DNA of 64,000 bases, from the NCBI GenBank assembly GCA_964016885.1, contig OZ024751.1:43028001-43092000 (forward strand), given 5' to 3'. The notes beneath the pieces are model-generated. The model saw only the letters and a program-made list of their open reading frames with translations. It ran no database searches and had not been told where the DNA came from. The position numbers and the translations under genes are program-made. This DNA comes from Eledone cirrhosa. Taxonomy: Eukaryota. This document shows positions 2,723 through 63,864 of this stretch, one piece after another. The first letter of the stretch is position 1, and each line of letters begins with the position of its first letter.

Positions 2723-2924
2723 CTAATGAACAATGTAAATTCTCTGTGAGAGAAGGTATCTTATAATGTAATGTAATAAGTTAGAATATTACTAGGGCTT
2801 GAAGACAATTGAAATTCTCATGGATTGTACCAATATTGGAACGAAATTGGGCGTCAGCTTGAACTATGGGTTATACCTATTAGTCAATTTAGTGCCCCAT
2901 ACTTTGAGAAAAAGAGACAATAGA

Positions 2925-3020
2925 TATTGTTTAGTACAGCCAAACCTGACGGCCAAGCTTAAACCGTTTCATTTAGAAACGGTTTAAGCTTGGCCGTAAG
3001 GTCTGGCTGTACTAAACAAT
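2925..3020. repeat. Hairpin containing the 3' half of a hammerhead (GAAA-stem III-TA)
   Basis: TATTGTTTAGTACAGCC...TTTC attta GAAA CGGTTTAAGCTTGGCCG TA AGGT...GGCTGTACTAAACAATA. Confidence 0.55.
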
Positions 3021-3170
3021 ATGGTCAGGTCACCAGTTGGTGCTACTGGTAACATGTATCCCAGTACAACCTGTCCCATGGTCGGGTCGTTGGCGACTAA
3101 ACTGGCAACCCCACCAAGGTTTCTTGGTGAGGAGGGTGACTTTGGACATCCTGCAGGACTAAAAATATAT

Positions 3171-3912
<742 letters not shown>

Positions 3913-4028
3913 AATCCGCATGCACAATAATTTTACTACTTGTTTTGAATCCATTAATAGAGGAGTTAAGTTTAAAAAGCATCGTAATAGAAACAACACC
4001 TTCTTAAACAAACTTAACTCCTCTATTA

Positions 4029-6113
4029 ATGGACAAAACTAATAACATATACAGCCTAGATTATGATACATATAGAAAGTTTATATATAATGAGCTACAC
4101 AAGAGCTACAAGAAAACTACTATGAAAAACCTAGAAGATATTAATTTGGAAGGCCGTAATATAGTGTCAAAACTGGGACTTCAGAGACATACACAACCAT
4201 ACACCCCGAACCCCCCAAGATTCTCTCTGAAGGACCGTAAGGAGGATTTCATTAGTAACCCTTCGATTAGACTAATCTGCCCTTCCAAGTCTGACATTGG
4301 CATTATCAGTAAGAAAATTTTAGATAAAATCATCCCACAGATTAAACACAAAATATACCTTAAACAGTGGGGAAATACGGGTGAAGTTATTGAATGGTTT
4401 AAGGATATCAAGGAAAACAAAAATAAAAAATGTATTCAGTTTGATATCAATTCATACTACACCTCTATTTCCCCTATCCTATTAAATAAGGCACTAATTA
4501 TGGCCATGAACAATAGTGACCTGACTAGACCCCAGATTGATGTCATACTTGCGGCCCATAAAACCGTATTCACTTTTGAAGATCAGTTATGGATCCGCAA
4601 GGATACGCATAACAACTTTGACATTACTATGGGATCTAGTGACTCGGTGCAGGTCACTGATTTGGTGGGCCTATACCTACTAAACGAAATCCATAAGGAC
4701 CTACCATACCTCAACGGTGGATTGTACCGCGATGATGCACTACTCCTATAAAAAATTTAATATAGAAAGAACTAGGAAACTATTGCATAAGACTTTCAAA
4801 AACTATAACCTAAGTATCACCATAGACAAAAACACTAAAAACGTTAACTTCCTTGATGCCACCCTTTACCTAGACTCTAAAATATATACACCATTCCATA
4901 AACTTAACGAAAAATTAATTTACGTAGATACCAAGTCTAACCACCCTAGATCAATATTAAACTCTATCTCTAAAGGAATATCCAATAGAATCTCTAATCT
5001 ATCTTATGAGGAAACCATATTTAGCAAAAACTCACAATACTATAATCAGGCATTAGCTAGATCAGGCCATAATAATGAGATCGAGTTCCTACCTATAAAA
5101 ACACATAGTTACAACATTATCTCTCATAATATGTCCATGAGGAAAAATAGTAATAAGAGTAATAACCACACACACACACTAATACGAAGGGTAGCAACAA
5201 ACGTAACTCACACCAGAGAAGACACCAAAATACCATAAACGGAAACACCTCAACAGATATAAAAACAAAAATAGAAGAAGAACTAATACATCCCCCCCTC
5301 CCTCCCCCTTCAATCTAAACGTCTCTACCAACCTACCTAAGGCTTTCTTCTCACTCCTGGATAAAAACTTCCCAACTGGCCACAAGTACCATAGTCTTAT
5401 AAATAAAAACACCATTAAAATCTCCTACTCTACCACGCCTAACATAGCATACCACATAGCTAGTAGCAATAAAAGAAAGTTTAATACTTACTTTCAACAA
5501 ACTAAAACACAGCAGGGGGTAAACTTTCAAAACAACGTAATATCTGCAAACCCTGATATCAATAGTAATAATAGTAATAACACTAATGAAATCAATAACA
5601 TTGGGAGCGACAACCCCCATAGCCATAATGCAATACCTAGCAACCAGACTTCTACACAACATAATAACCGACAGGTTAACATTCAAAATAATTGTAACTG
5701 TAGATCTAATAGAACCTACCCTTTAGATAAAAACTGCTTAATCAAGGACATCATGCACGGTCAGAACTAGCAACTCTTCTGAAACCTATATAGGCTCTAC
5801 TTCGAACTGCTTCAAAACGAGATACAACTCACATCTCCATTCTTTCAAAAACCACAGTCTAGCCAACTCCACTTCACTATCTAGCTACATACACTATCTG
5901 AAAACTAGAAATAGATCACATACACTTCAACGGGAAGTGATAGGTAAGGCGGCATCGTACAGACCACCTAATAAATTCTGTAACCTCTGTCTACTAGAGA
6001 CCCATACTATAATCTTCTCGAACCTTAACCTCCTTAATAAAAAATCGGAAGTGTTTGCGTCGTGCCAGCACCGCTTCCGGCACTCCTTCCAAAACTTTAA
6101 ACCCAATATATAA
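4029..6113 (+). pseudogene. PLE reverse transcriptase + GIY-YIG endonuclease, several frameshifts
   Basis: DKTNN, FDINSYYTSI, TMGSSDS, GLYRDDAL, VNFLD, SNHP; then CNCR..PLDKNCL, TYIGSTSNCFKTRYNSH, FCNLCLLE, LLNKKSE..CQHR, stop at 6111-6113. Confidence 0.85.
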
Positions 6114-7572
6114 CAATGTCAGACTTGAACCCATCACCGCTTCTAACACCACACCTCAAGGGCGTGCCTTACACCACTACACCACACTCTCTGATCTAAC
6201 CTTCCCTCGACACAAATCATTCTATCTATCTATAACTTTATACCCTAGAAATACCCCATAAACACCAACTTTTAATATAATTACTTTCAATTACTTATAA
6301 TTATATAGTGATAGAAATATAATACAGTCTATATAAACTTTAAATACTAGATACGGCAGTGAATTATATATGCAATTGTAATTAAATGTATGGAGTAATA
6401 ACATTAGATTTATATAGGATTAATTTATTAACATAAGGGATCTGTCTAACTTATATGTAGAGTGGTGTAATGAATTATATTTGAATTATATATGCATGTA
6501 TAACTTGATGGATAGATTAATGACATTGTAAATGAGGTATGTATTTGTCTACCCAAGAGATGTATTTGGTTTTGTCATGCAAACAGCCGTACGCTGCTCC
6601 ATAACTTACCAGGGGTTATGTAGACAAAATTCTAATGGGTCCTCTGATATGTTTTAAGAGTAGACTGTATTTATAGTGAACTTTGATATAAAGATATGGC
6701 ACTTTGTATGGAAAATTCAATTATAGCACTATATAATAAAGAGTAATCAACTTCCTATAGATACCTTTAATACATTATGATAGAGTAGACTGTATTTAAA
6801 ATCGAAAATTAGATATAAATATATAACCTTTTATATAAGGGACTCAATTGAGGCACCATATAATGTATGTTAGAACAATGAATTTAGTTATGAGAATCAG
6901 CTAGTTACCTCCCCTTACGCATTAACTCCCCTTAGTTACACACCTACTTCCGGGTAATAAACCACTGTAAATTCTCGCAGCAGAAAGAACCTATTCTATA
7001 AATATGGATTAAATAACACTGAGCCTCAATACGCTACAATAATTTAATGCATCAAACATTCAATACGGAATCATCGTAACTTATGTGATGGATGTAAAAA
7101 TATTTCTTCCTTTTTCTGAATGTGAAAATGGTGGTAGATGCGAAAACTATAACTTTCTTCTTCTTTTTCTTTTTCTGCACACATACTTTTTTGATCTATA
7201 CAAAAAATACCCTACCACTACAACCACCATAATACTCTTGCTTACCCGCTTAAAGTGCTTGCATTACATGTAACACCTTGCCAGACAATAATCGTATATA
7301 AGTGAGACACACTTGCATGCTCCATGTGTAACTAACGCATACACTACCTACTAGATCTGACTATCAAACTATCCTCTTGCATTATCTGTGTTATCTGCCG
7401 AATGTATTTTAATTTTAATTTTAATTTTGATTTTGATTTTGAATTTGAATTGCTGTACAAATATAGCATAGTATAATATATGTCACTCCACTGTACATCA
7501 ATATATATATATATGTATCTGTATGTCTCTTGCGTTGGATAGGAGGTCAATTATATGTACAAACATTGAAAA

Positions 7573-7621
7573 TTGCTCCGAAGAATCCAAGCCTAGGTTT
7601 GGATGAAACAATTGTAAGTGA
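7573..7621 (+). ncRNA. Decayed hammerhead in the putative 3' pLTR of the PLE
   Basis: TTGCT-CCGAAGA(U4C)-ATCCAA gcctaggt TTGGAT-GAAA-CAATTG-TA-AGTGA. Confidence 0.6.
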
Positions 7622-11328: not shown

Positions 11329-11528
11329 AGGGAAAGAGTCAGGACCACAACGGCTGAGCTCCGTCCGTTTTGACAGCTAGATCCGAAAGCTTCGGATCTA
11401 GCTGTCGAAACGGCCGGAGCTCAGCCGTCGGGGTCCTGACTCTTTTCCTATTACCCACTCTACTACCCTAAGTATCGAGTACTCTGGTGCGTTATGGTCC
11501 ACCTGGTTCCATACCACACTTTCTTTGT

Positions 11529-11530
<2 letters not shown>
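11329..11530 (+). mobile_element. Family H asymmetric hairpin element between (TA)n tracts
   Basis: Inverted arms centred near 11390 (GATCC GAAAGCTTC GGATC), long arm continues TTACCCACTCTACTACCCTAAG; related copies at 25415, 26790, 27718, 28920, 47716, 48710, 51086, 57484. Confidence 0.75.
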
Positions 11531-11569
<39 letters not shown>

Positions 11570-11672
11570 GTAGGTCCCGGGTTGAGTCGGGGATAACCGC
11601 AGTAAGTAAGGTACTCAATACATGGCAGAGTAAAATTTTTTTATATTTTATAGAAGGAGCTTCTACAGGACT

Positions 11673-16664: not shown

Positions 16665-17263
<599 letters not shown>

Positions 17264-23608: not shown

Positions 23609-24175
23609 AATCAAGGTTTAGCAAATAATGAAAAAGTTTCAAAATAAATTTTAAAAAATTGACTTTACCAACTATAGTTACCTTTACCGATCGGTTTCGA
23701 ATCTCAAAAATAAACGGAGACCATACGGCCTTCGTTGCAAAGAAAGATTCTCGTCAGAAGGTTCTTTTCATTCGAAGAATATAAAATTCTTGAACTTAAA
23801 TTACGAACTAACGCTATCCAAAACTGTTCCCGAGATGAGAGTGAATGAAGTGGAATCAATTTTTTCAAGGGCCGAAGTAAAGATAGAGGCAGAGGGAGGC
23901 AGGTCAAACGGCCGCCACTATCACTAGCAGCAGTCGGAACGACCAAATTTTTTCTCAACAGCGAGGAGGATAGTAATAATAGGATATGTGTTCCTACACG
24001 CACAAGGCGCTAAGGGACGCATGTATTGTCCAACCATATGCCAATGTGGTTCAATGGCAGGTTAATAAATTAACGAGCCAGAACATATATAATCAAGGTT
24101 TAGCAAATAATGAAAAAGTTTCAAAATAAATTTTAAAAAATTTTAAAATTTATTTTGAAACTTTTTCATTATTTG

Positions 24176-25417: not shown

Positions 25418-25625
25418 AAGGAACGAGTAGGACCCCGACGGCTGAGCTCAAGCCGTTTCGATGGCTAATTAATTCTGGACTAAATTTAGTCCAGAATTAG
25501 CCATCGAAACGGCTTGAGCTCAGCCGTGGGGGTCCTACTAGTTCCTATTACCCACTTTACTACCCTAAGTATTGAGTACTTTGGTGCGTTATGGTCCACC
25601 TGGTTCCTTACCACATTTCCTTCGT

Positions 25626-25676
<51 letters not shown>

Positions 25677-26404: not shown

Positions 26405-26405
<1 letters not shown>

Positions 26406-26750
26406 GATATTAATAAATGGAAACTATATTTATAAAACCATATTTATTTCATTATACATATTTCAGGGATACCAAATTAAATTATGGTATGCCTTCATCA
26501 GACAAAATACAATATATAGGGTACGTCAAAGCTTATTTGTAAAACTGTTATATATTGTATTTTGTCTGATGAAGACATACCATAATTTAATTTGGTATCC
26601 CTGAAATATGTATAATGAAATAAATATGGTTTTATAGATATAGTTTCCATTTATTAATATCGTATATCTACTCCAAATACTTGTCGAGTGCTTTATATCA
26701 GTTATAAAAATATTTACTTGTTGTATCCCAACAATTTTAAATAGAACTTT

Positions 26751-26753: not shown

Positions 26754-26792
<39 letters not shown>

Positions 26793-27024
26793 AAAATGTT
26801 TAATCCAGGCGGCAGAGGTCAAGCCGTTTCGACGGCTATTTCTGGAGTCCAAACGTCGAAACGGCTTGAGCTCTGCCGTCGGGTTAAGCATTTTTCTATT
26901 ACCCACTCTACTACCCTAAGTATTGAGTACTCTGATACGTTATGGTCCACCTGGTTCCTTACCATACGTCCCTCGTATATATATATATATATACAAATGG
27001 AAACTATATTTATAAAACCATATT

Positions 27025-27552: not shown

Positions 27553-27719
<167 letters not shown>

Positions 27720-27908
27720 AACGAGTAGGACCCCGACGGCTGAGCTCAAGCCGTTTCGACGGCTAATTCTGGACTCAGAATTAGCCGTCGAAACGGCTTG
27801 AGCTCAGCCGTCGGGGTCCTACTCGTTCCTATTACCCACTCTACTACCTTAAGTATTGAGTACTTTGGTGCGTTATGGTCCACCTGGTTCCTTACCACAT
27901 TTCCTTCG

Positions 27909-27957
<49 letters not shown>

Positions 27958-28879: not shown

Positions 28880-28911
<32 letters not shown>

Positions 28912-29316
28912 ACAGAGAGGATGTGGTAAGATATACCATAACGCACTCGATACTTAGGGTAGTAGAGTTGGTAATAAGAAAAGATTCAGGACACCGACGG
29001 CTGAGCTCCGGCCTTTTCGACAGCTAGGTCCTAACTAAGTATTAGAACGGCGGGAATCTAGCTTAACTTATAAGTTTAGCTAGATTCCGGCCGTTCTAAT
29101 ACTGGATCTAGTCCTGAATCTTTCCATATATATATATATATATAAGTTTATCCCGGGTTCAATCGGGGGTAACCACAGTAAGTAAGGTACTCAATACAAA
29201 GCAGAGTATAAATATTTAATTTTTCGAAATATTTACTTCTGCGTTCACAGATTGATTTTTTTAGTTTCAGAAAATCCCGTTAAGGGTGAAAGCAGCGATT
29301 GTTTGCTTAAAGTTTA

Positions 29317-35677: not shown

Positions 35678-36047
35678 GTAGGTCCCCGGTTGAGTCGGGG
35701 ATAACCACAGTAAGTAAGGTACTCAATACATGGCAGAGTAAATTTTTTTTATTTTATAGAAGGAGCTTCTACAGGACTAGTACTGTTTCATTCAGATGAA
35801 ATCTTCAGGAAGCTGGGTGTCATATTCAGTTCTGGTATTTATACATTTAGGTAGTGGCAAGGGAGGGTGGTGGATGGGGGCGGGGGGTATTTAGATATAT
35901 TTGTATCTAAATACCCCCCCCCCATCCACCACCCTCCCTTGCCACTACCTAAATGTATAAATACCAGAACTTAATATGACACCCAGCTTCCTGAAGATTT
36001 CATCTGAATGAAACAGTACTAGTCCTGTAGAAGCTCCTTCTATAAAA

Positions 36048-36060
<13 letters not shown>
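35676..36060. mobile_element. Family A asymmetric palindrome with intact hammerheads at 35764-35814 (-) and 35985-36035 (+)
   Basis: About 155-bp arms centred near 35900; AGCTTC-CTGAAGA...GAAA...TA-GAAGCT in each arm; (TA)n both sides. Confidence 0.85.
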
Positions 36061-47158: not shown

Positions 47159-47905
47159 CAGTGCTTGTTTTATAAACATTGACATATCCAAGAACGAGAC
47201 CTTAACGGTTCAAGTTTTACCTGGATAGTAAAAGGAAAAGGGGGAAGAAAAGAAAAAACAAATATTTCACATTATTAAGATGAATATGAAAATGAGGTTG
47301 AGGCATAGGGCTGAAAAAAACATTATTTTTAGACGCTCGATAGATTTAAATAATTATTAGGATATATATATGTATGTATAGGAAGAAGAAAGAAAGAGAA
47401 AGAAAGAAAAGTTTGTATTTACGTGAATTTAAAAAGATTGAAATGTTAAGAATTAACAGTTTGTTGGAGTGGTGGAATATGATTCCAGAATTTAAAAAAT
47501 ATTTAGCTGAATTATGAGTTATAATATTATATATACAATCAATTAGATTATATGAAGAATTATGGTTGTAAGTATATAAATAAAGTACCAGTAATGTACT
47601 GAGTAATTGCTGGCCTTGTACCAAAAGCAGAAACAATTATTAGACTATATGATTTAGTCAAAATGTTATAGCGAAGCTTCTGTTCCTATTTCAAATCTAA
47701 ACTATATATATATATAGGAACAAGTATGACCCCGACGGCAGAGCTCAAGCCGTTTCGACGGCTATTTCTGGACTGAAATAGCCGTCGAAACGGCTTGAGC
47801 TCTGCCGTCGGGGTCATACTTGTTCCTATTACCCACTCTACTACCCTAAGTATTGAATACTTTGGTGCGTTATGTTCCATCTGGTTCCTTACCACAATTC
47901 CTTCG

Positions 47906-47967
<62 letters not shown>

Positions 47968-48655: not shown

Positions 48656-48709
<54 letters not shown>

Positions 48710-48714
<5 letters not shown>

Positions 48715-50591
48715 GAAGGAAATGTGGTAAGCAACCAGATGGACCATAACGCACCAAAGTACTCAATACTTAGGGTAGTAGAGTGGGTAATAGGAACGAG
48801 TAGGACCCCGACGGCTGAGTTCAAGCCGTTTCGACGGCTAATTCTGGACTAAATGAACATTTTTATCCTGGTAAATGAATAGCCGAGCTTCTCAGGGGGT
48901 AATTCCATATATGGTAAAAGTGATTGTCACAAGGATTGGTCAAAAGTTTGTTGTTGAGACACATAATTCTATCATGGGATTTTGTGGGAAGAAGGGGTAG
49001 CTGAACTTGCCAGTAGAAGAAAGAGGGAGAGGGAGTGGAGGAAACCCAGTCGTGCGTTGAAAGTGACAACTACAGCAGAATCCTAAGGATAAGAGGTCAA
49101 GAGAAGTATACTAGAGAGGGGAAGGGGGAGGAAGTCGAAACATAAGTAAATCTATATGGAGTAAATATATAGAAAAATAAGAATGTTAAAAATATAAAAA
49201 AACACAATTTCTGGTTACTATTCCCCTACCACAATCATCAAATCTCTCACTGGTTCTGCTAAACTATAGAAAAATTTAATAGGTGGGACGGGATACTAAA
49301 TACGAGATTGTAGTGAAAGAATTTTATGAGTTAGTAGTAATCGGCCAAATCTTTCTTACGACAGGTCAACAAGTAGGGGGCCAAAATACTAAAAAAAACT
49401 AATATGAAATAATAATTCAGAGTCCCAAAACTAATACGAAATATTAATTCAGAATCCCGAAAATGAATACTAATACGATATATAAGAGTACCGCTACGAT
49501 ACATAAATTCTAATACAAACTACATAAATGCTCGTACGATATATATGAAAAATCTAATACGGAAAATTAATTCAGAATCACCCCCTAAAAGAAATAAATA
49601 AATACTGATATACGGGAAACTAAAGCAGAGATACCACTAAGAAATCTAGAAATTACGGAAATGGGGCAGCAATCAGATAAGAAAGCAAGTATCTGGGGTC
49701 TAGCACATCTGCTATAAAAGGCGGAGTCGGCCAATTCTATCATAGAATAGGGGGTGGAGGTGGAGGTACTGAGGCTACAGAGGACCGAAGGGCTGCCTCG
49801 GGGTGGGCGAGAAGGTGAAAAGAAGGACGACAAAGAAGGAGAACTGGGGTGGAAGGAGTAGGAAGGGATGGGGAGAAGAAGGAAATATAGAGGAAACGAT
49901 AAAAAATATATAAGAAAATCTTACGTCTACTTTGTAAGCAGGGGTTAGCCATTACAAAGTTGGCAAGTGGAGTGTTACAGCCCTTGTCTACCCTCGCCCC
50001 CCTGGGTCATTATGGGGTTTGAGGGCGAGGTAAGTCCTACGCAATCTGTGTTTGCATGCAGTTATCAGTTCGTCTTTCTTGTTTAGGAGTTGGTCCGTCG
50101 AAAACAGCATTTGTAATGTTTCCTCCGAGCATAAGTTACACGGACAGCGTCCTCCCGTGTAAGAGTTGGCTCTGGACAGTAAGCTCCAAGTGAGATTATA
50201 GGTTATATTGTTATCTTTGAGGTCCCAGATGTGGCCCGAAAGTGTAGTGGCGTGACGCTGGGCCGGGTTTCGGAAAGTATGTCTGTGTTGGTACAGCCAG
50301 GTCTTGAAGTCACAAGCGCTTAATCCTATATAAGCTTTGTTGGAAGTGTCCGTCCTCACGTTGCACTGGTAGATCACATTACGATCTCTGCATCTGTTGT
50401 CGAGGGGGCAAATGGATCCATCAGGACAGTTACACCTCCTGGTCGGCTCTCCACTGCTATCTAGGTTATTTCTTCCATAGGGGTTGAGTATTTTGTTGTT
50501 AGAGGAGACGATGTTTTGTGCAATCCTTGTGACAATCACTTTTACCATATATGGAATTACCCCCTGAGAAGCTCGGCTATTCATTTACCAG
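48710..50591 (-). mobile_element. 5'-truncated Penelope-like element with family H 3' end and inverted 5' fragment
   Basis: GIY-YIG ORF, about 1.2-kb 3' UTR, hammerhead-like motif 48805-48900, 3' end at (TA)n; 50521-50591 is the reverse complement of 48868-48938. Confidence 0.8.
49988..50520 (-). pseudogene. PLE Cys-rich linker + GIY-YIG endonuclease domain
   Basis: CNC..CPLDNRC, NVIYQC..AYIGLS..FKT, H..F, LSGHIW, CNLCSEE, LLNKKDE..CKHR. Confidence 0.85.
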
Positions 50592-50750
50592 CAAATACCC
50601 AGTACATTACTGGTACTTTATTTTATCGAGCCCGTAAGGATGAAAGGCAAAGTTAACCTCGGCGGGATTTGAACTCAGACTGTAAAGGGACGTAACTATG
50701 CTAGAAAGCATGGCGTCCAACCCTCTACCTATACTGCCAATTCACCGCCC
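50589..50750 (-). mobile_element. SINE copy
   Basis: Same family as 151-520. Confidence 0.75.
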
Positions 50751-51052: not shown

Positions 51053-51088
<36 letters not shown>

Positions 51089-51285
51089 AAAAAGTATGAC
51101 CCCGACGGCAGAGCTCAAGCCGTTTCGGAGGCTATTTCTGAGTCCAGAAATAGCCGCCGAAACGGCTTGAGCTCTGCCGTCGGGGTCGTACTTTTTCCTA
51201 TTTCCCACTCTACTACCCTAAGTCCCTAAGTATTGAGTACTCTGGTGCGTTATGGTCCATCTGGTTCCTTACCACAATTCCTTTG

Positions 51286-51345
<60 letters not shown>

Positions 51346-52251: not shown

Positions 52252-52386
52252 ACAGCTGAGTAAACTGGAGCAACGTCTAATAAAGTGTCTTGCTCAAGGA
52301 AACAACACATCACCCAGTCCGAGAATTGAACTCACAACCTTTCGATTGCAAGCCCAATGCTCTAACCACTAAGCCAAGCGCCTTCA
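52252..52386 (-). mobile_element. CORE-type tRNA-derived SINE; second copy 63378-63499
   Basis: RC: tRNA-like head then TCCTTGAGCAAGACACTTTA...GTTGCTCCAGTTTACTCAGCTG. Confidence 0.7.
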
Positions 52387-52643
52387 CCGTCGGATCCTGA
52401 CTCTTTACAATATAACTATACTCTACTACCCCAAGTATCAAGTACTCTGTTGAGTAATGGTCTAACTAGTTTCAAACTGGTGTGTGTGGAGGGATGAGTG
52501 CGTGTGGTGTGTGGTGTGTGTATGTGTGTGTGTGTATGTGGGTGGGGGGGGGGGGGGCAAAAGGTAAACAGAAATAATAAAACAAATGGCAGAGTACATG
52601 GAAGAAATATATTAGTTTTATGTTTGAAATAGCAGGAAGAGAG

Positions 52644-57455: not shown

Positions 57456-57618
57456 TATAGATATAGATATAGATACATACATATAACGAAGGAAGTGTGG
57501 TAAAGAACCAGGTGGACCATAACGCACCAGAGTACTCGATACTTAGGGTAGTAGAGTGGGTAATAGGAACGAGTAGGACCCCGACGGCTGAGCTCAAGCC
57601 GTTTCGACAGCTAGGTGC

Positions 57619-57660
<42 letters not shown>

Positions 57661-57710
57661 TCCAGAAATAGCCGTCGAAATGGCTTGAGCGCTGCCGTCG
57701 GGACATACAT

Positions 57711-57817
<107 letters not shown>

Positions 57818-58097: not shown

Positions 58098-58102
<5 letters not shown>

Positions 58103-58478
58103 AAAGGAATTCCAACTTTGTCTGATTTACTCATTTTATTTACAATCCTTTAACATTTATAATGATATTATAATGAAATAGTATGGTAGAATATTAAATG
58201 TTAAGAGTTAATTGAACAATTACTTTCATGCTTTCGCAATCTTCAGGTTCATATTCAGTGGTGACAGTCAAGTTTGTAATTTTCAACTGTTGAAAATTGC
58301 AAACTTGACTGTCACCACTGAATATGAACCTGAAGATTGCGAAAGCATGAAAGTAATTGTTCAATTAACTCTTAACATTTAATATTCTACCATACTATTT
58401 CATTATAATATCATTATAAATGTTAAAGGATTGTAAATAAAATGAGTAAATCAGACAAAGTTGGAATTCCTTTTATTA
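58098..58478. repeat. 381-bp near-perfect palindrome centred at 58288 with hammerhead-like motifs (58213-58251 -, 58325-58363 +)
   Basis: TGAAC-CTGAAGA-tTGC gaaa GCAt-GAAA-gtaa-TT-GTTCA; one arm mismatch seen. Confidence 0.85.
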
Positions 58479-58924: not shown

Positions 58925-59581
<657 letters not shown>

Positions 59582-60413: not shown

Positions 60414-60594
60414 TTAATCCCGAGTACAATCGGGACTAACCACAGTAAGTAAGGTACTCAATACATAGCAGAGTATAGATATTTGACATAGATATGGCTT
60501 CTACAGGACTAGAACTGTTTCATTCGGGCGAAATCATCAGAGCTTCCTGAAGATTTCTCCCGAATGAAACAGTTCTAGTCCTGTAGAAGCTATT

Positions 60595-60600
<6 letters not shown>
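60412..60600. mobile_element. Family A palindrome with back-to-back hammerheads (60496-60540 -, 60541-60591 +)
   Basis: ...TCATCAG | AGCTTC-CTGAAGA...GAAA...TA-GAAGCT. Confidence 0.8.
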
Positions 60601-63517: not shown

Positions 63518-63859
63518 GTTTTGCGAGGTTTTTGATATGGAATCGTGTGTCGAAACAAATATTGTTATACTTGGGGAGGGTCATATTTGTGTAATATTGC
63601 CAGAATTAATAACAGAACACACTCACTGTTTGGTTGGTTTTCGCTTCTGTGTCTTTTATATCGGTAATCTAATTTATTCGGTCCTCAATGTTGCCATTGT
63701 ATTATTTTTGACCGTTGGTCAGTCAATGGCAACATTGAGGACCGAATAAATTAGATTACCGATATAAAAGACACAGAAGCGAAAAGCTAAAACCAACCAA
63801 ACAGTGAGTGTGTTCTGTTATTAATTCTGGCAATATTACACAAATATGACCCTCCCCAA

Positions 63860-63864
<5 letters not shown>
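63518..63864. repeat. Asymmetric palindrome between (TA)n tracts (no ribozyme core recognised)
   Basis: TATACTTGGGGAGGGTC... at 63566 versus ...GACCCTCCCCAAGTATA at 63864; related fragment near 46300. Confidence 0.8.

Follow-up and report, generated by a model that had tools for sequence, protein, structure and literature searches.

Family H palindromes of Eledone cirrhosa as the ribozyme-bearing 3' end of a Penelope-like element

The element at positions 48712-50591 raises the question of how a family of short palindromes, here called H, relates to the retroelement ORF remnant that lies among them, and by what route such palindromes come into being. The window, to which all counts and coordinates refer, is the whole 64,000-nt stretch of Eledone cirrhosa DNA analysed. 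A preliminary description, made from the sequence alone, had regarded H as the 3' end of a GIY-YIG Penelope-like element (PLE), the short palindromes as truncated insertions of it, and stem II of its ribozyme as a stall or joining site of the reverse transcriptase (RT). The published work on PLEs is cited throughout from excerpts of the respective papers.

The sequence at 48712-50591 is a 5'-truncated PLE on the minus strand. Read in sense order, from 50591 to 48712, it consists of an inverted copy, an ORF remnant, a 3' region of ~1.09 kb, a hammerhead-like fold (48900-48805) and a 78-nt tail (table 1). The stop of the ORF remnant falls at 49988 on the minus strand, 1.28 kb from the element end. 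The apparent ORF has 198 aa, the first ~20 codons of which derive from the inverted copy; from the protein alignment and consensus together with the junction we infer that the authentic frame probably begins near 50524, with an ATTG microhomology joint at 50524-50521. The inverted copy itself, announced in the preliminary description as a 71-bp copy of the 3' region at the 5' end, is indeed exact over 71 bp (50521-50591 versus 48938-48868) and agrees at 76 of 78 positions over 78 bp. Its outer end lies within loop II of the ribozyme, at a CTGG common to the flanking SINE-like repeat, which is missing ~28 nt of its 3' end when compared with the four other copies shown. This outer end is probably not original, and because a later microhomology deletion is the simplest reading, it holds little information on the insertion. 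Loop II contains a direct repeat (48845-48880; TTCATTTA..CCAG twice), which suggests a duplication enlarging a 10-nt loop, and the end of the inverted copy coincides with the boundary of the first repeat unit.

Table 1. Features of the element and of the H loci in the window. Negative numbers give the 5'-most base of an arm counted from G12 of the ribozyme.
Feature	Position	Strand	Remarks
(TA)n target tract	48658..48710	.	adjoins element 3' end
78-nt tail	48712..48789	-	on every long H arm, none on short arms
Type I hammerhead-like ribozyme region	48790..48900	-	short (no-tail) arms end ~48790
Loop II hotspot	48850..48850	-	A of T^AGTCC, -18 from G12
Long 3' region	48901..49987	-	~1.09 kb from stop to core; single copy in window
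5'-truncated ORF	49988..50524	-	RT thumb end, CxCx5C linker, Hydra-type GIY-YIG endonuclease
71-bp exact inverted copy of 48938-48868	50521..50591	+	holds second CTGAGAA 5' half
Flanking SINE-like repeat	50588..50750	-	17 further matching stretches in window
H1 palindrome	11331..11529	+	subfamily C; self-complementary AGCT centre, 19-20 nt upstream of GAAA
H2 palindrome	25419..25626	+	subfamily A; both arms to -22, 2-nt AT overlap
H3 palindrome	26790..26976	+	subfamily B; long arm -18, short arm -16
H4 palindrome	27717..27910	+	subfamily A; 97% to PLE end; short arm -18, long arm -14; centre GACT
H5	28911..29125	-	subfamily C; complex centre, deleted short arm
H6 palindrome	47714..47907	+	subfamily B; short arm -18, long arm -12
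H7 palindrome	51084..51287	+	subfamily B; long arm -18, short arm -14; centre AGTC (mirror of H4)
H8	52385..52474	+	old diverged single fragment beginning 3' of GAAA
H9	57485..57720	-	long and short arm separated by (TA)n(CA)n

A search with the 177-aa remnant returned 4962 relatives at E<=0.001. EN+ PLEs have a telomerase-like RT further upstream in the ORF, and in a 20-sequence alignment the long homologs carry RT motifs upstream of the matched region (Y/F-RDD in P0001, P0108, P0142 and P0149), the copy studied here being itself cut in the thumb. P0149 also displays RWQ and DKT, in an N-terminal RT region that is absent from our copy. Searches of Pfam and NCBIfam with the ORF and ten homologs gave no informative family, and a PDB sequence search with the ORF protein found nothing. 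The predicted structure (pLDDT 91) aligns with the catalytic domain of I-TevI over 89 residues (Z 8.9, rmsd 2.4), followed by T4 EndoII, UvrC and a 5hmC restriction endonuclease as the next three matches; Foldseek alone returned GIY-YIG chains only at E 0.4-1.8, which is not significant. The C-terminal GIY-YIG endonuclease is recognizable by VIY...YIG, H79, E134 and N147. It is preceded by the linker C30-N-C32-x5-C38, that is CxCx5C, CNLC precedes E134 and CKH follows N147, and CCHH is absent, with one non-conserved Cys only between VIY and YIG. The near-invariant Arg75 reads Trp in this copy, so its nuclease is probably dead.

These motifs identify the clade. A CxCx5C linker, the lack of CCHH, and CxxC and CxH flanking the conserved E and N are diagnostic of Hydra PLEs, which are further characterized by RWK and DKT in the N-terminal RT region, a (TA)n target and an element size <3 kb (PMC8557442). 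The Neptune, Nematis and Penelope-Poseidon clades possess the CCHH motif, with two Cys between GIY and YIG (PMC8557442). Neptune is excluded by the missing CCHH together with the linker motifs, and Nematis and Penelope-Poseidon by the lack of CCHH in the ORF. The definition of EN+ PLEs includes an inverted 5'-truncated copy at the 5' end and an optional tail (PMC8557442, Fig. 2); here we find the inverted 5'-truncated copy and a tail on long arms only, and the PLE 3' end as well as all eight long H arms adjoin TA-type tracts, as in Hydra. Judged by its linker and endonuclease motifs, with published sequences compared by eye, the element is a Hydra-clade EN+ PLE, and it is a new family within this known clade, set apart from published Hydra members partly by eye comparison. 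Three H motifs gave 0 matches in the supplement of PMC8557442, as excerpted and where line breaks could hide one. In a contig collection without eukaryotic genomes an H motif likewise gave 0 matches, and the PLE protein retrieved one unrelated 39-residue fragment whose DNA showed no similarity to that of the window. One contig of a bacterial MAG (L001:118-363) combines a canonical hammerhead and a (TA)n tract with a fragment of a Hydra-like endonuclease; it is probably animal DNA in a bacterial bin.

The link between H and the ORF rests on the last 143 nt of the PLE (48854-48712), which match the long H arms at 80-97%. From the ORF end at 49988 to this H-homologous end there is no other repeat of the window, and the sole TA tract is one 8-nt run, so the continuity of H with the 3' side of the ORF, as first described, is upheld. 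The segment just upstream of the H homology supplies a CTGA and closes on the H half with a stem I of 5 bp and a stem II of 6 bp; since it is also fused in inverse orientation to the ORF break, one and the same event copied it and the ORF. That an H unit merely inserted beside an unrelated PLE fragment could be argued from the single ORF-bearing example, from a long 3' region lacking a second copy in the window and from the crowding of PLE fragments in the (TA)n-rich DNA here; such a chance adjacency is nevertheless very improbable, because the upstream segment both closes the hammerhead and recurs, inverted, at the ORF break, and no long (TA)n tract separates ORF and H. Within the window, and with one ORF-bearing copy, H is very probably the ribozyme-bearing 3' terminus of the Hydra-clade PLE, and its assignment to a GIY-YIG PLE in the preliminary description stands.

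The long 3' region is either 3' UTR or captured spacer. Captured DNA is possible because ~1.09 kb far exceeds the 3' regions of the published Hydra consensi viewed, which measure ~0.1-0.3 kb as read by eye. Three degenerate 32-nt direct repeats occupy 49395-49581. At 49710-49740 (+) there is a TATA-like CTATAAAAG, antisense and pointing into the ORF, followed by what we take to be GC-box and CCAAT-like motifs; a similar CTATAAATAG occurs at about 3655 (+), in the terminus of another PLE family. That family is represented by a second Hydra-like PLE at 4032-6101 (+), within 3341-7600, in which RT and GIY-YIG are interrupted by stops and frameshifts. Its terminus is an inverted partial tandem with a ribozyme at 3492 and a second copy at 23610-24142, and a 32-bp foldback-like palindrome is situated at its ORF break (3942-4039). 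As it belongs to another family, it neither supports nor refutes the link between H and the ORF.

The ribozyme is assembled on the minus strand from ACCCC (48900-48896) and GGGGT (48809-48805) as stem I, the core CTGAGAA (48895-48889), CGGCTA (48885-48880) and TAGCCGTC (48840-48833) as stem II, GAAA (48832-48829) and stem III (48828-48811), with C17 at 48810 and the cleavage position after this C. Three stems thus surround the core, as in a type I hammerhead: stem I is of 5 bp and stem II of 6+3 bp; stem III has 6 bp and a 7-nt loop, and loop II comprises 32 nt (48876-48845). The string is as first written, and among 5000 dinucleotide shuffles of the 1133-nt upstream region none produced a CTGA with a stem I of at least 5 bp and a stem II of at least 6 bp; by the same criteria 2 of 444 CTGA sites in the window pass, both inside the element. 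The 5' half had been thought visible only here, which is true of the element, and within it the half occurs twice (48880-48900 on the minus strand and 50559-50579 on the plus strand), the second time in the inverted copy. The core reads CUGAGAA rather than CUGANGA. This G8A is present as reported, yet it is common to both arms of the element and hence not demonstrably private decay. Published Hydra ribozymes include ctgaggag...cgaa (PMC8557442), so that G8A is the natural reading of the core, and it may be a family trait, given that both arms carry it and that other families of the window vary in their cores. For instance, a hammerhead-like motif with a CCGAAGA core occurs once, at 7578 (+), and a multi-copy hammerhead-like family has CAGAAGA-type cores (12497, 29288 and 45831 on the plus strand, 36204 on the minus strand). 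The hammerhead form as drawn has -21.5 kcal/mol versus an MFE of -28.4 kcal/mol; lying ~7 above the minimum, it is not what folding predicts as the ground state. When the 3' end was folded without constraints, the result was no better than for shuffles (z -0.23) and no hammerhead form appeared. Rfam listed no hammerhead among the best 150 of 250 matches of the whole window, and none at E<=10 for 48720-48960.

What, then, are the short H copies? The nine loci, one more than the eight first counted, include the fragment H8. From one (TA)n tract to the next, they consist of a short arm, a centre and a long arm that carries the tail. All eight long arms stop at the same tail position as the PLE end, all eight short arms end within ~5 nt of 48790, and the CTGA core is present in none of the short copies, as had been stated. 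Arms joined head-to-head within (TA)n, one with and one without a tail, are what has been published as the signature of PLEs, in accordance with the earlier view of the short palindromes as truncated PLE insertions. In the six intact palindromes the arms match their own partner best (1 of 720 permutations; 2 of 5040 with H9), and all six have different centres. Since arms pair with their own partner and no two centres are alike, each palindrome appears to have formed on its own; the arms agree at the level of the subfamily, to which gene conversion may have contributed. In H9, the long arm is C/A-like and ends in the 3' strand of stem II (~-11), the short arm is of subfamily B and ends at -18, and the two differ at 15 positions; this divergence would suggest two templates or two insertions.

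Mapped against the PLE copy, 11 arms have their 5'-most base, counted from G12, at -22 (two arms), -18 (five arms), -16, -14 (two arms) and -12, the 3' strand of stem II spanning -12 to -1. All copies had been said to break within stem II; eight of the nine loci do break in stem-loop II, mostly in the 32-nt loop, and H8 begins 3' of GAAA. Only two arms end in the stem proper, the long arm of H9 and that of H5, which runs through the loop to the probable 5' strand. In five of six subfamily A/B insertions (H3, H4, H6, H7 and the short arm of H9) the furthest template base is 48850, and in H2 it is 48854 (-22, C^ATTTAG); partner arms halt 2-6 nt before the furthest template base. H1 ends at -19/-20, a position mapped by distance alone, its loop being different. 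Plotted for the copies of the window, the 5' truncation points lie mostly in the loop rather than in the stem named by the preliminary description. For five of six at 48850, P is ~4e-5 assuming uniformity over 20 positions and independence, a value that may be inflated because one of six branches of the long-arm tree is supported and the six ends may descend from one short master. Both loop II end sites are pyrimidine-A steps, and the end resembles, post hoc, what we take to be an initiator. Of the five ends, three are followed by C and two by G, no more than a hint of a cap-templated C. The short arm of a palindrome of another family (family E, 11636-11660) also ends at T^AGTCC, there in loop III, which is a coincidence or a sequence-specific end. 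Ribozyme cleavage was rejected as the cause of truncation, as the 15 arms with GAAA lie upstream of and across the cleavage position and none begins there. A splice-acceptor origin (TTTAG|TCC) was rejected as well, the AG being retained and no foreign upstream exon being present.

The H copies belong to a wider set. The window has 25 close inverted pairs, long-spacer pairs left aside, six of which are H. In 19 of the 25, one arm abuts a (TA)n tract while 25-160 nt separate the other from such a tract, compared with a mean of 1.3 and a maximum of 5 under a null for this one-sided layout; examples are the pairs at 16739-17071, 26405-26662, 35743-36056, 58100-58476, 58986-59356, 60488-60599 and 63570-63860. 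At least five other hammerhead families, with 25 complete CUGANGA cores among them, are involved in the palindromes of the window. The sharing of the tail layout by 19 of 25 pairs and the presence of the other hammerhead families indicate that the region is saturated with PLE 3' ends. In five other hammerhead families, 25 arms extend across the complete ribozyme, which, these arms having been selected by core, is a count and not a fraction; their 5' ends vary, as judged by eye. An H-like relative at 2924-3022, with a GC-rich stem III, a palindromic AAGCTT loop and no core, is a palindrome that breaks 5 nt 5' of GAAA, its short side having no (TA)n flank.

We propose that each short palindrome would be the product of one insertion event at a (TA)n tract. 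The RT-endonuclease would cut both strands and prime two cDNAs on the same kind of RNA, the first at the end of the tail (48712), the second 78 nt upstream (48790), and the cDNAs would be joined head-to-head through 0-4 nt of microhomology or by a blunt template jump. In the long insertion one cDNA would have extended as far as the RT thumb by the time of joining. In short insertions it would end at a fixed nucleotide of loop II, T^AGTCC or, less often, C^ATTTAG, if the template RNA begins there, through a transcription start or a processed end, and yields run-off, strong-stop-like cDNAs. An RNA initiated in loop II would be without the CUGA half and so would not self-cleave in cis, with which the fact that all arms span the cleavage position agrees. 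A PLE protein assayed in vitro was able to nick both strands and extend them without any need for ribozyme cleavage, and RT started at two internal sites that bound the tail (PMC11167929); PLE transcripts reportedly start within the pLTR (PMC6765202; PMC2377424). The combination of a PLE terminus, twin priming and a defined RNA end is, taken as a whole, probably the best explanation of the locus, and priming on two strands with head-to-head joining of the cDNAs seems, as a component of it, reasonably likely. A defined RNA 5' end inside loop II as the cause of the fixed end is plausible, if a little short of an even call. The full form of the proposal, in which the short palindromes are twin run-off cDNAs from a ~140-nt RNA, copied by a PLE dimer from both nicked strands and joined head-to-head, we put forward only tentatively.

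For the fixed end, we favour the defined RNA 5' end over stalling and over short masters. Under stalling, as originally suggested, the RT would stall or dissociate at stem-loop II of a full-length template and the cDNAs would be joined there. The clustering of breaks in stem-loop II at eight of nine loci fits this, stems II and III of H are longer and more GC-rich than in other families, and a small inner hairpin can form in loop II beside the hotspot; moreover, the break in 2924-3022, just 5' of GAAA, equally suits a structural block. The fixed-end reading has against it that H5 and the long arm of H9 end elsewhere. As to stalling, a block of RT by a helix is expected at the helix's 3' foot, and the H ends lie 6 nt past the 3' strand of the stem, exact to one nucleotide; in addition, the 25 arms of other families traverse a whole hammerhead and the PLE copy itself was read through. 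Stem II as a stall site is therefore not supported in the form first given, and we regard stalling in general as rather unlikely. Descent from one or a few truncated masters, H being then a short non-autonomous family whose 5' end is inherited and reflects no hotspot, would account for the near-identical 5' limit (-18 to -22) of three subfamilies and for a long-arm tree that does not separate the short copies from the PLE, and non-autonomous PLE derivatives have been described (PMC8557442; bioRxiv 10.64898/2026.07.22.740005). Against it, no two copies have the same centre, so that no palindromic master is being copied, and H4 is closer to the ORF-bearing copy (97%) than are H6, H7 and H3; we consider it unlikely.

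The joining step may alternatively be pictured as self-priming, proposed in the Discussion of Arkhipova et al. 2013 (PMC3846280), in which one cDNA or antisense RNA folds back and is extended into the inverted arm. The concordance of arms with their own partners would follow naturally, as would the self-complementary centres AT (H2) and AGCT (H1, and also family E at 60540/60547) and the foldback-like palindrome at the ORF break of the second PLE. The polarity of the arms tells otherwise. In H3 and H7 it is the tailed arm that reaches furthest. In H4 and H6 the tail-less arm does so, and it holds 4 (H4) and 6 (H6) template nucleotides missing from the tailed arm, from which it was thus not copied without a later loop inversion. 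Such an inversion could explain the mirror centres of H4 and H7; barring it, a one-way foldback of a tail-primed cDNA would yield just the polarity in which the tailed arm is the longer-reaching one. Furthermore, the arms of H9 come from different subfamilies, and the inverted arm of the long element copies sequence 1.6 kb from the junction. Foldback is accordingly doubtful, and twin priming is preferred because of both polarities, the mixed-subfamily arms of H9 and the two-strand extension seen in vitro.

How much of this is new? The phrase missing link, used in the preliminary description, overstates the case: there is one ORF-bearing copy, and earlier work on PLEs had already described truncated copies in inverse orientation, tails, the targeting of (TA)n and solo fragments of the ribozyme (PMC8557442; PMC4209133; PMC11167929). 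A fixed truncation in loop II, such palindromes or a polarity test were not found in the open-licence literature, and the single-nucleotide end in loop II and the arm-polarity test, resting on six events, are offered as a lead. The formation of PLE inverted termini is stated as an open question (PMC8557442, PMC3846280). Because both its outer ends are fixed and its central junction can be counted, the H layout lets twin priming be told from self-priming across thousands of events, and the fixed loop II end bears on whether PLE hammerheads act in the cycle or are bypassed. If the twin run-off reading is true, such palindromes, dozens in 64 kb, would document in vivo and to the nucleotide both the priming on two strands and the RNA 5' ends of many PLE families, and the origin of the inverted pLTR would become testable from genome sequence alone. 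For repeat annotation, an abundant unannotated palindrome family is assigned to a defined retroelement clade, which suggests that most short (TA)n-flanked palindromes in the genome are PLE ends, not MITEs or miRNA-like hairpins.

MITEs and foldback DNA transposons have symmetric terminal inverted repeats with shared internal sequence. This identity was rejected for H, whose arms are asymmetric by a fixed 78 nt and whose centre differs in every copy. Like the non-LTR retrozymes (bioRxiv 10.64898/2026.07.22.740005), H copies are short, non-coding, hammerhead-related PLE derivatives, but retrozymes are head-to-tail tandems with complete ribozymes, whereas H copies are head-to-head and lack the CUGA half, for which reason that identity was discarded too. 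With the minimal hammerheads of PLEs (Cervera and de la Pena 2014, PMC4209133), H shares the type I topology, a long helix II and a loop 3 that is palindromic, reading GAGCTC in most H arms; both include solo motifs derived from truncated PLEs as well as pairs of motifs on opposite strands, spaced 100-700 bp apart. H differs in a stable 6-bp stem III, a non-canonical core and short copies without the first half of the core.

Among Hydra-clade elements (Hydra-1_Obim, Hydra-1_Amil, Penelope-13_HM; PMC8557442), H finds the same linker, endonuclease motifs, (TA)n target and 3'-terminal hammerhead. Hydra-1_Amil and Penelope-2_NV have the core ctgaggag...cgaa, one transition from that of H, and Penelope-13_HM has an inverted 5'-truncated copy, as here (PMC8557442). 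In the octopus member, Hydra-1_Obim, the ribozyme differs and the 3' region is short, and relative to the Hydra members H is distinguished by its ~1.09 kb 3' region, 32-nt loop II, 6-bp stem III with 7-nt loop and G8A; a mass occurrence as 200-bp palindromes is not described for the clade in the excerpts of PMC8557442. The Adineta vaga Penelope elements (Arkhipova et al. 2013, PMC3846280) have been explained by self-priming on an antisense template, and the excerpts contain no ribozyme mapping and no single-nucleotide loop II end. They nevertheless share with H head-to-head inverted termini, palindromes at the junction, an optional tail, microhomology joints, long spacers before the 3' pLTR and Inr-like pLTR motifs. 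Poseidon_Ac (Frangieh et al. 2024, PMC11167929) belongs to another clade and has a tail of 30-40 nt overlapping the ORF start, as against 78 nt here, and the head-to-head joint and the 5' end point are not addressed in the excerpts of that study. In common with H it has two RT starts bounding the tail, both strands nicked and extended, an AT-rich target and uncleaved RNA as the substrate of insertion.
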